A DNA stretch of 64,000 nt from sequence record PQ249395, one strand, 5' to 3'. The notes beneath the pieces were generated by a model. That model saw nothing but the letters and a program-made list of their open reading frames with translations, had not been told where the DNA came from and ran no database searches. Below, piece after piece: positions 5,314 to 5,424 of the stretch. Numbering within the stretch: position 1 is the stretch's first letter; the number at the start of each line of letters is the position of its first letter. This DNA comes from Escherichia phage Pu-Krd-SF1. Both the position numbers and the translations under genes were made by a program.

Positions 5314-5424
5314 TGGTATCTAGGCCTTTCCAGGCCTCTCTAGACATCATTTAGTTTCTACCCTTTATAATATATTATCCTATCCTTTGATTTCCCCTCT
5401 CTGCCCTAGAATTCCCCAAAACCT

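Follow-up and report, generated by a model that had tools for sequence, protein, structure and literature searches.

Rho-loading (rut) sites are exemplified by the site downstream of E. coli tyrT and by lambda tR1. The non-coding stretch of phage DNA described here shares with such sites ~80–110 nt of C-rich, G-poor, unstructured and untranslated sequence in the sense orientation, and differs from them in that it sits after an efficient intrinsic terminator and its C-richness is not maintained. Early transcription units of T4 contain Rho-dependent sites, which are poorly mapped (PMC2988021). A second described system is PeSL-mediated modular shuffling in T4-type phages, the pattern of which is like that of a terminator-bracketed insertion that we found at this locus in phage Aplg8 (Arbiol et al. 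2010, PMC2839356; Comeau et al. 2014, PMC4122927). The stretch occupies positions 5315–5424 of a window of 64,000 nt (the whole length of DNA analysed) from Escherichia phage Pu-Krd-SF1 (record PQ249395). We consider it, with moderate confidence, to be an inherited and mostly passive non-coding spacer of the T-even e.8 early-promoter module.

A 1.2-kb query covering the segment and its surroundings was 100% identical to the Tequatrovirus Escherichia phages Pu-Krd-SF5/6/7 and 95–98% identical to many Tequatrovirus and T4-like genomes; on these matches, the window is that of a T4-like phage, a Tequatrovirus. Its plus strand is the early-transcribed strand, which appears in the T4 GenBank record as the minus strand. 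The features of the locus, and of a second spacer considered further below, are as follows.

2896–4284: eight tRNA genes, with segB between them
Upstream of 4629: rnaD and rnaC, both stable RNAs, and a trailer ending in the strong terminator 4601–4629
4601–4629, plus strand: intrinsic terminator closing the tRNA-rnaD-rnaC unit, AGCCCCGACCGAAAGGTTGGGGCT plus a T-run
4630–5314, plus strand: cassette inserted relative to T4, consisting of a leader, the 188-aa ORF and its own terminator
4715–5281, plus strand: 188-aa ORF, phrog_2280, no function annotated
5286–5312, plus strand: stem of the terminator of the 188-aa ORF, with a T-run to 5314; −15.2 kcal/mol, z −4.1
5315–5424: spacer segment, between the terminator 5286–5314 and the e.8 early promoter
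5315–5321: GGTATCT, conserved left end of the spacer and right side of the junction TTTTT/GGTATCT; nucleotide diversity (pi) 0.02–0.03
5319–5344: palindrome, AGGCCT at 5322–5327, loop TTCC, AGGCCT at 5332–5337, with three outer pairs across a bulge
5345–5384: AT-rich core, CATCATTTAGTTT(C/A)TACCCTTTATAATATATTATCCTA(T/C)C, containing TATAAT
5385–5424: C-rich, G-poor tail, changing at about the neutral rate, with its last ~15 nt (ATTCCCCAAAA) in the far-upstream promoter module
5425–5477, plus strand: T4-type early promoter of e.8, with an A/T-rich UP region, a GTTTACA −35 and the extended −10 TGGTACTAT
5521–5784, plus strand: e.8 coding sequence, 87 aa, phrog_2678, no function annotated, served by the promoter at 5425–5477
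33475–33632 (T4 41,647–41,804): nrdH-55.6 spacer, 65 nt, 72% pyrimidine, C 17, G 3

The first-pass annotation, made from the letters of the window, had placed the segment between a terminator and a promoter, and both flanking elements are real. The terminator has the stem, T-run and folding energy listed above, and the terminator that closes the rnaC unit further upstream is stronger in energy (−20.3 kcal/mol, z −4.2 for the fold against shuffles). The promoter scan returned TTTACA-17-TACTAT with TG at 5449–5477 as the e.8 promoter core. This promoter belongs to the repeated T4 early-promoter families D1–D3, with at least seven similar early promoters in the window, and the annotation of phage SA21RB lists it as a T4 early promoter. 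Function look-up of the flanking proteins (the 188-aa ORF, e.8 and two ORFs downstream) gave only matches of unknown function.

Two further observations concern the surroundings of the segment. The tRNA set of the window (Leu, Gly, Pro, Ser, Thr, Met-CAU, Tyr and Arg, at 2896–4284, with segB present) differs from that of T4 (Gln, Leu, Gly, Pro, Ser, Thr, Ile and Arg); tRNA-Tyr lies immediately before segB, as in clusters of the RB3/T2L type, and the start of the mechanical segB ORF overlaps the tRNA-Tyr gene. In addition, many small early ORFs share near-identical opening DNA and peptide (ATGAAAAC.TAT..GAATTT.., MKTY.EF..EA). This repeated 5′ coding module occurs at 971–1021, 1304–1354, 4713–4749, 8982–9018, 9729–9779, 10056–10106 and 55629–55679, where it adjoins the repeated promoters and 5′ UTRs.

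The plus strand of the segment reads as the first-pass annotation gave it and contains C 34, T 41, A 24 and G 11, i.e. 68% pyrimidine. When every 110-nt window in the 64 kb is counted, pyrimidine content averages 46.4% (sd 5.1%) and reaches its maximum of 70% at position 5308, and only 0.07% of these windows are equally pyrimidine-rich. The excess of C over G in the segment, 23–26 compared with a window mean of −4.7 (sd 5.6), is the largest in the 64 kb. Likewise, the 78-nt C/G ratio has its maximum for the whole window, 7.7, at position 5355, while a ratio of 3 is reached by only 0.2% of windows; 78-nt windows within the spacer hold C 22–25, G 3–6 and 28 YC dimers. A compositional bias far beyond chance is thereby confirmed, and the strongly C/T-rich plus strand reported by the first-pass annotation contains the pyrimidine maximum of the 64 kb. 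Its statement that the segment has no ORF is borne out for the plus strand, which holds none of at least 30 aa; on the minus strand, a mechanical 37-aa ORF (5237–5350) overlaps the left part of the segment.

A 119-nt query matched 522 phage records, essentially with one copy per genome, and 515 of the matches cover at least 80% of the query. Most are 90–95% identical, and the spacer always stands in front of e.8. The carriers are all Tequatrovirus or a few Mosigvirus (RB69, SF, PhAPEC2 and phiE142). Distant BLAST of the spacer against 50,697 phage records likewise gave a single copy per genome, restricted to Tequatrovirus and a few Mosigvirus; no match was found in 5,426 E. coli genomes, and scans of IMG/VR and metagenomes added few loci. 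The search of related phages that the first-pass annotation had proposed therefore found the segment in about 520 genomes, so that it is neither absent nor unconserved in all relatives. Within the window, a repeat search and low-stringency BLAST showed that only the promoter part (from about 5427) recurs and that the spacer body is unique.

The same element lies in the rnaC-e.8 intergenic region of T4 (70,624–70,907), where it is ~91% identical over the spacer and has the same position relative to the e.8 promoter. In the T4 genome (NC_000866) it falls at ~70,718–70,834, between rnaC (70,908–71,046) and e.8 (70,360–70,623), and neither T4 record annotates a feature there. The sequence has thus been known for decades within T4, yet has never been described as an element. 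T4 lacks the 188-aa ORF cassette, whereas the window carries it, and the rnaC terminator therefore abuts the T4 spacer.

Comparison of the upstream sides of the spacer revealed at least four distinct contexts, all of which are joined to it at TTTTT/GGTATCT. In T4, PST, RB3, ACG-C40 and Lv5cm, the rnaC terminator AGCCCCGACCGAAAGGTTGGGGCTTTTT stands directly against the spacer and is followed at once by GGTATCTA.GCC; in T4, GGTATCTAAGCC... comes directly after that terminator. The 188-aa ORF with its own terminator forms the second context and is found in this window, RB69 (frameshifted), HY03, phiE142 and others; this cassette is missing from T4, PST, RB3 and ACG-C40. In VEc20, Sf21, slur03, Aplg8 and others, the spacer is preceded by an ORF ending in '...AKQIK' and by the rnaC-type terminator in a second copy; the upstream ORF of phage SF is different again. 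In Aplg8 (locus L026, 120–200 and 670–705), the inserted ORF is bracketed by two rnaC-type terminator copies.

By this comparison the spacer is the fixed right flank of an ORF-swapping site. The junctions at GGTATCT are shown by the aligned genomes, and we infer that the ORF cassettes would be exchanged through recombination at the terminator hairpins while the GGTATCT end stays in place. The possibility that the segment is a recombination-junction scar, which the first-pass annotation had raised, is therefore upheld in part. Its left edge, 5314/5315, is a recurrent junction with at least four upstream contexts, and its palindrome resembles a truncated terminator (see below). Taken as a whole, however, it did not arise as a scar of the insertion in this window, because T4, without that insertion, carries an unchanged spacer. 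The comparison marks precisely where T-even phages exchange small ORFs downstream of rnaC.

Two of the cassettes have features of their own. Immediately downstream of the first terminator copy in Aplg8 comes AGTATAAATAAG. The T4 late-promoter consensus TATAAATA occurs in it without a mismatch, and the Aplg8 cassette may therefore be late-transcribed. RB69 carries the 188-aa ORF at high identity, as judged by eye, split by a frameshift into the annotated ORFs 149c and 148c; the presence of the same ORF in RB69 and in the window suggests a recent exchange between Tequatrovirus and Mosigvirus.

The small palindrome that had been noted in the segment is present (AGGCCT at 5322–5327 and again at 5332–5337). 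It had been proposed as part of a structured RNA or DNA element, and such a hairpin could be a processing, binding or secondary termination signal. In the window it is perfect, with 6 bp and three outer pairs, and folds at −8.7 kcal/mol (local z −1.96 against shuffles), and in RB69-type variants it persists through a G-U pair. By rough hand arithmetic, about one 110-nt stretch in seven would contain a 6-bp stem by chance. The predicted energy falls to −0.8 kcal/mol in T4, −2.8 in VEc20/RB3 and −3.1 in PST, and the hairpin is abolished by uncompensated changes in T4, PST, VEc20/RB3 and SF. In T4, the arms read AAGCCT..AGACCT compared with AGGCCT..AGGCCT in the window, and so form no hairpin. 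The covariation test agreed: none of the nine pairs changed on both sides, 13 cells were unpaired, and the percentage paired equalled that of shuffles. Folding of both strands of the whole spacer, which had been suggested as a check, gave no signal beyond shuffles (z +0.16 for the plus strand, −1.17 for the minus strand and +0.76 for the T4 version). No T-run follows the hairpin, no Rfam family matched in the spacer at E ≤ 1, and ARAGORN found no tRNA or tmRNA in 5282–5520. A role as a structured hairpin is thus already largely refuted and, to us, barely credible, and the palindrome is removed as a candidate structured element.

Variation within the palindrome is uneven. Thirty distinct sequences contained 15 variants of the palindrome region, in which the 5′ arm is near-constant and the 3′ arm reads AGGCC, GGGCC, GGACC, AGACC, AAACC, TTGTC or GGGAA. 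The five-base patch 5332–5336 is therefore hypervariable, with seven versions in the 30 sequences, and the 5′ arm and the CTCT that follows the patch are almost invariant. This patch might be a candidate for templated mutation in a quasi-palindrome.

A possible origin of the palindrome came from more distant relatives. Phages with a more divergent e.8 (80–87% amino-acid identity) match IME341, IME281, WG01 and QL01, which we take to be Dhakavirus-like. At these Dhakavirus-like loci, e.8 and the early promoter are retained and the spacer is missing, and in three of the five loci the terminator TCTAGGCCCTTCC-GAAAGGTT-GGGCCTTTTTT abuts the e.8 promoter. The Tequatrovirus consensus at the palindrome, TCTAGGCCTTTCC-GGGCCTCTCT, is identical to the outer stem of the Dhakavirus-like terminator at 12 of 13 and 6 of 6 positions; the apical 8 nt are gone and the T-run is replaced. 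By rough hand arithmetic, such a match would arise by chance in two 200-nt regions with a probability of <0.001. The match is short, however, and the alignment is not the one that MAFFT chose, for which reason we grade the relic reading as probable rather than proven. The palindrome is probably a truncated relic of a terminator of the AGGCCCTTCC-GAAA-GGTTGGGCCT type. On the passive-spacer reading, it would be the outer stem of this older terminator, which lost its apical 8 nt and T-run and, to judge from the Dhakavirus-like similarity and the uncompensated substitutions, is now decaying because the strong terminator just upstream makes it redundant.

The Dhakavirus-like loci also vary among themselves. 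In an IME341-like locus (L007, 2290–2460), ~120 nt separate a first terminator, GCCCCGTCTGGGGTTTTTT and then GGTTAACTTAGAG, from the terminator that abuts the promoter. This ~120-nt gap is seen in some IME341-like phages (Dhakavirus-like by our own assignment), and the layout indicates that tandem terminators with a unique spacer recur at the e.8 locus in another group.

Nucleotide diversity (pi) was calculated from 29 sequences, excluding PhAPEC2, for the parts of the spacer and for its neighbours.

GGTATCT: pi 0.03
Palindrome: pi 0.093, 12 of 24 sites segregating
Core 5345–5384: pi 0.035, 7 of 40 sites segregating
C-rich tail 5385–5424: pi 0.139, 22 of 40 sites segregating
Promoter: pi 0.055, 18 of 49 sites segregating
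5′ UTR: pi 0.036, 11 of 43 sites segregating
e.8 codon position 1: pi 0.015
e.8 codon position 2: pi 0.005
e.8 codon position 3: pi 0.098, 40 of 87 sites segregating

Most of the spacer thus appears to drift at about the rate of synonymous sites, and the 40-nt core appears constrained. Core diversity is 0.035 compared with 0.098–0.139 in the neutral proxies. After correction for the lesser variability of A/T compared with C/G sites, the core has 7 segregating sites where 17.4 are expected (~2.5-fold fewer; P ~3e-4, for a core whose boundaries were picked after the data were seen and for sequences related to each other). The TATAAT in the core is unchanged in 29 of 30 sequences. The tail, in contrast to the core, would be drifting neutrally and merging into the far-upstream part of the promoter, given that its end module ATTCCCCAAAA is common to the early promoters at 33573 and 48228.

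The constraint on the core could mean that 5345–5384 is a cis-acting DNA site for transcription and that the rest of the segment is filler. Candidates for such a site are a far-upstream accessory of the e.8 promoter (~−100 to −140), a site for a host or phage protein, and a weak −10-only promoter acting through TATAAT. The diversity of the core is like that of the promoter and 5′ UTR, and in the window a TAGACA stands 19 nt upstream of the invariant TATAAT. Against this, the −35-like hexamer is polymorphic and needs a 19-nt gap, and a scan of 5315–5424 passed no sigma-70-type promoter on either strand. As a MotA-dependent middle promoter the site is poor, since ATCATTTA, 12 nt upstream, lacks the G and C of the TGCTT box, and none of the mapped T4 middle promoters lies near 70.7–70.8 kb. 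The late-promoter motif TATAAATA is absent from both strands of the spacer. A decayed early promoter, GTTTAT-N18-TCCTAT, scored within the top 0.1–0.7% of positions with a PWM from the window promoters, a rank without significance once the number of positions scored is allowed for, and the match to the IHF consensus has three mismatches by inspection. The core is, moreover, deleted in the viable phage PhAPEC2. Taken with the post hoc definition of the core, these results make a dedicated cis-acting site unlikely. On the passive-spacer reading that we prefer, the core would still be constrained to some degree, with a putative factor acting most likely on the DNA.

A different account of the same conservation is a minus-strand mini-gene, which would start at ATGATG (5350–5345), use the core as promoter and RBS region, and encode a 21–37-aa peptide leftward through the palindrome and terminator. 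Conservation does end exactly at the ATGATG, an AAGGG lies ~10 nt upstream on the minus strand, and the frame is open in all variants inspected. However, codons 3–7 vary non-synonymously (P/S/L, A/V/T/S, W/R), the C-terminus is set by whichever terminator lies upstream, and the search for a minus-strand promoter found none. Both arms of a terminator hairpin would also have to serve as coding sequence for the peptide. We regard such a gene as very improbable.

Other candidate elements were considered for the spacer and rejected. None of the T4 replication origins (oriA, C, E, F and G) is mapped here; oriE lies close to repEA and oriC close to rI.-1, with the rest elsewhere. SegB sites are tRNA T-arm motifs and are unlike the spacer. 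Pairing of either spacer strand with rnaC, rnaD or the rnaC trailer was no better than with shuffles.

The spacer also tolerates loss. The Mosigvirus PhAPEC2 (locus L018, ~701–753) has a 68-nt deletion in the spacer, apparently between TTTCC direct repeats, which takes half of the palindrome, the core and part of the tail. Together with the spacer-less Dhakavirus-like phages, this deletion indicates that the spacer is dispensable.

The composition of the segment raises the alternative that it is a rut-like site, loading Rho as a back-up terminator or insulator. According to this model, RNA that reads through the rnaC or 188-aa ORF hairpin would be untranslated, unstructured and C-rich, Rho would load onto it, and RNA polymerase would be stopped in or just after the e.8 promoter region. 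This would keep the heavily transcribed tRNA/rnaC unit off the early promoter and the e.8–e.2 genes. The at least 70–80 nt of C-rich, G-poor, unstructured nascent RNA expected of a rut site are present. Indeed, the C/G ratio (up to 7.7 in 78 nt, with 28 YC dimers) is the window-wide maximum, the plus strand has neither stable structure nor an ORF, and its orientation is sense for early transcription; the Rho-dependent sites of T4 early units are, furthermore, known to exist and poorly mapped (PMC2988021). Several results argue against the model. Strong intrinsic terminators (−15 and −20 kcal/mol, each with a T-run) immediately precede the spacer, so that little RNA should reach it. Polarising the substitutions by majority allele, a crude method, gave 22 losses of C compared with 9 gains, from which the C-richness appears to be eroding toward the genome average rather than maintained. 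The constrained part is the AT-rich core and not the C-rich flanks, and the spacer is missing in Dhakavirus-like phages and largely deleted in PhAPEC2. Our literature search found no Term-seq, rho-mutant or bicyclomycin data for T4. On this evidence, we judge a rut-like function to be unlikely.

The best argument for function is a coincidence elsewhere in T4. A scan of ~102 kb of the T4 genome, in three stretches read on the early strand, found only two intergenic islands with a C-minus-G excess of at least 14 in 78 nt, namely the e.8 spacer and the nrdH-55.6 spacer. The latter is thus the sole other comparably skewed intergenic island in this ~102 kb, and it has the same layout: a small GC hairpin, GGGCCCTCTGGGCC, is followed by a C/T-rich, G-poor spacer and then by an early promoter, which is of the same subtype with ATTCCCTAAAA upstream. 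It differs from the e.8 spacer in being shorter (~65 nt) and more conserved (mostly 95–99%), with 95–99% conservation in ~450 of 505 phage records. BLAST of the e.8 spacer against the nrdH and gene-43 spacers gave no significant similarity. The rnaC-e.8 and nrdH spacers could form a small undescribed class of T-even transcription insulators, with the order intrinsic terminator, C-rich and G-poor untranslated spacer, early promoter. In such a class, the spacer would load Rho or another pyrimidine-binding factor onto read-through RNA, and the core would be a pause or protein-binding site. We hold this class to be quite unlikely; if true, it would offer for the first time a way to approach, from sequence, the Rho-dependent sites that have long been inferred for T4 early transcription.

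The promoter subtype itself is shared by three early promoters of the window (5412–5447, 33546–33572 and 48200–48227), which carry ATTCCC(T/C)AAAA upstream of the usual TTTTTTCACAAA(A/G)(C/T)TGTTTACA. With this motif, the repeated promoter module reaches as far as about −75. The third promoter of the subtype (48228) follows gene 43, and its spacer is not C-rich.

Returning to the reading that we favour, the segment would be passive DNA between whichever terminator closes the upstream unit (that of rnaC in T4, that of the 188-aa ORF cassette here) and the strong sigma-70 promoter of e.8. It would have no role as folded RNA or DNA and would be dispensable for phage viability. Several points weigh against a purely passive spacer. 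Its composition is the most extreme in the 64 kb, which a passive relic leaves unaccounted for, and the nrdH-55.6 island with the same layout hints at a shared function. Similarly, the passive model does not account for the constraint on the core (7 variable sites compared with 17.4). The relic-terminator match, finally, is a short one that would hold only under an alignment other than that of MAFFT. Neither the conserved 40-nt core nor the extreme excess of C over G, which one other T4 spacer also shows, is accounted for by any current annotation. With these exceptions in mind, an odd-looking stretch reduces to an ordinary dispensable spacer beside a cassette-swapping junction in the T4 tRNA/e region.

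Of the known systems, PeSL cassettes provide a comparison for the whole locus. They share with it a terminator stem-loop and a strong sigma-70-like early promoter with an A/T-rich upstream region, set in a hyperplastic region (PMC2839356, PMC4122927); such a promoter is found at e.8. Also shared are neighbouring small ORFs of unknown function that vary among close relatives, and insertions bounded by repeated terminator copies. In agreement, differing ORFans are joined at a repeated motif here, with four contexts at one junction and the terminator duplicated in Aplg8. The locus differs in that ~110 nt of unique, single-copy C/T-rich DNA lie between the stem-loop and the promoter. No stable terminator adjoins the promoter, the functional hairpin at 5286–5312 being 110 nt upstream of the UP region, and the former stem-loop of the module survives here solely as the truncated palindrome. 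The compact PeSL form of the e.8 module is found only in the Dhakavirus-like relatives. Together, these comparisons make the e.8 spacer a concrete example of how PeSL-type terminator/promoter modules may decay and stretch.
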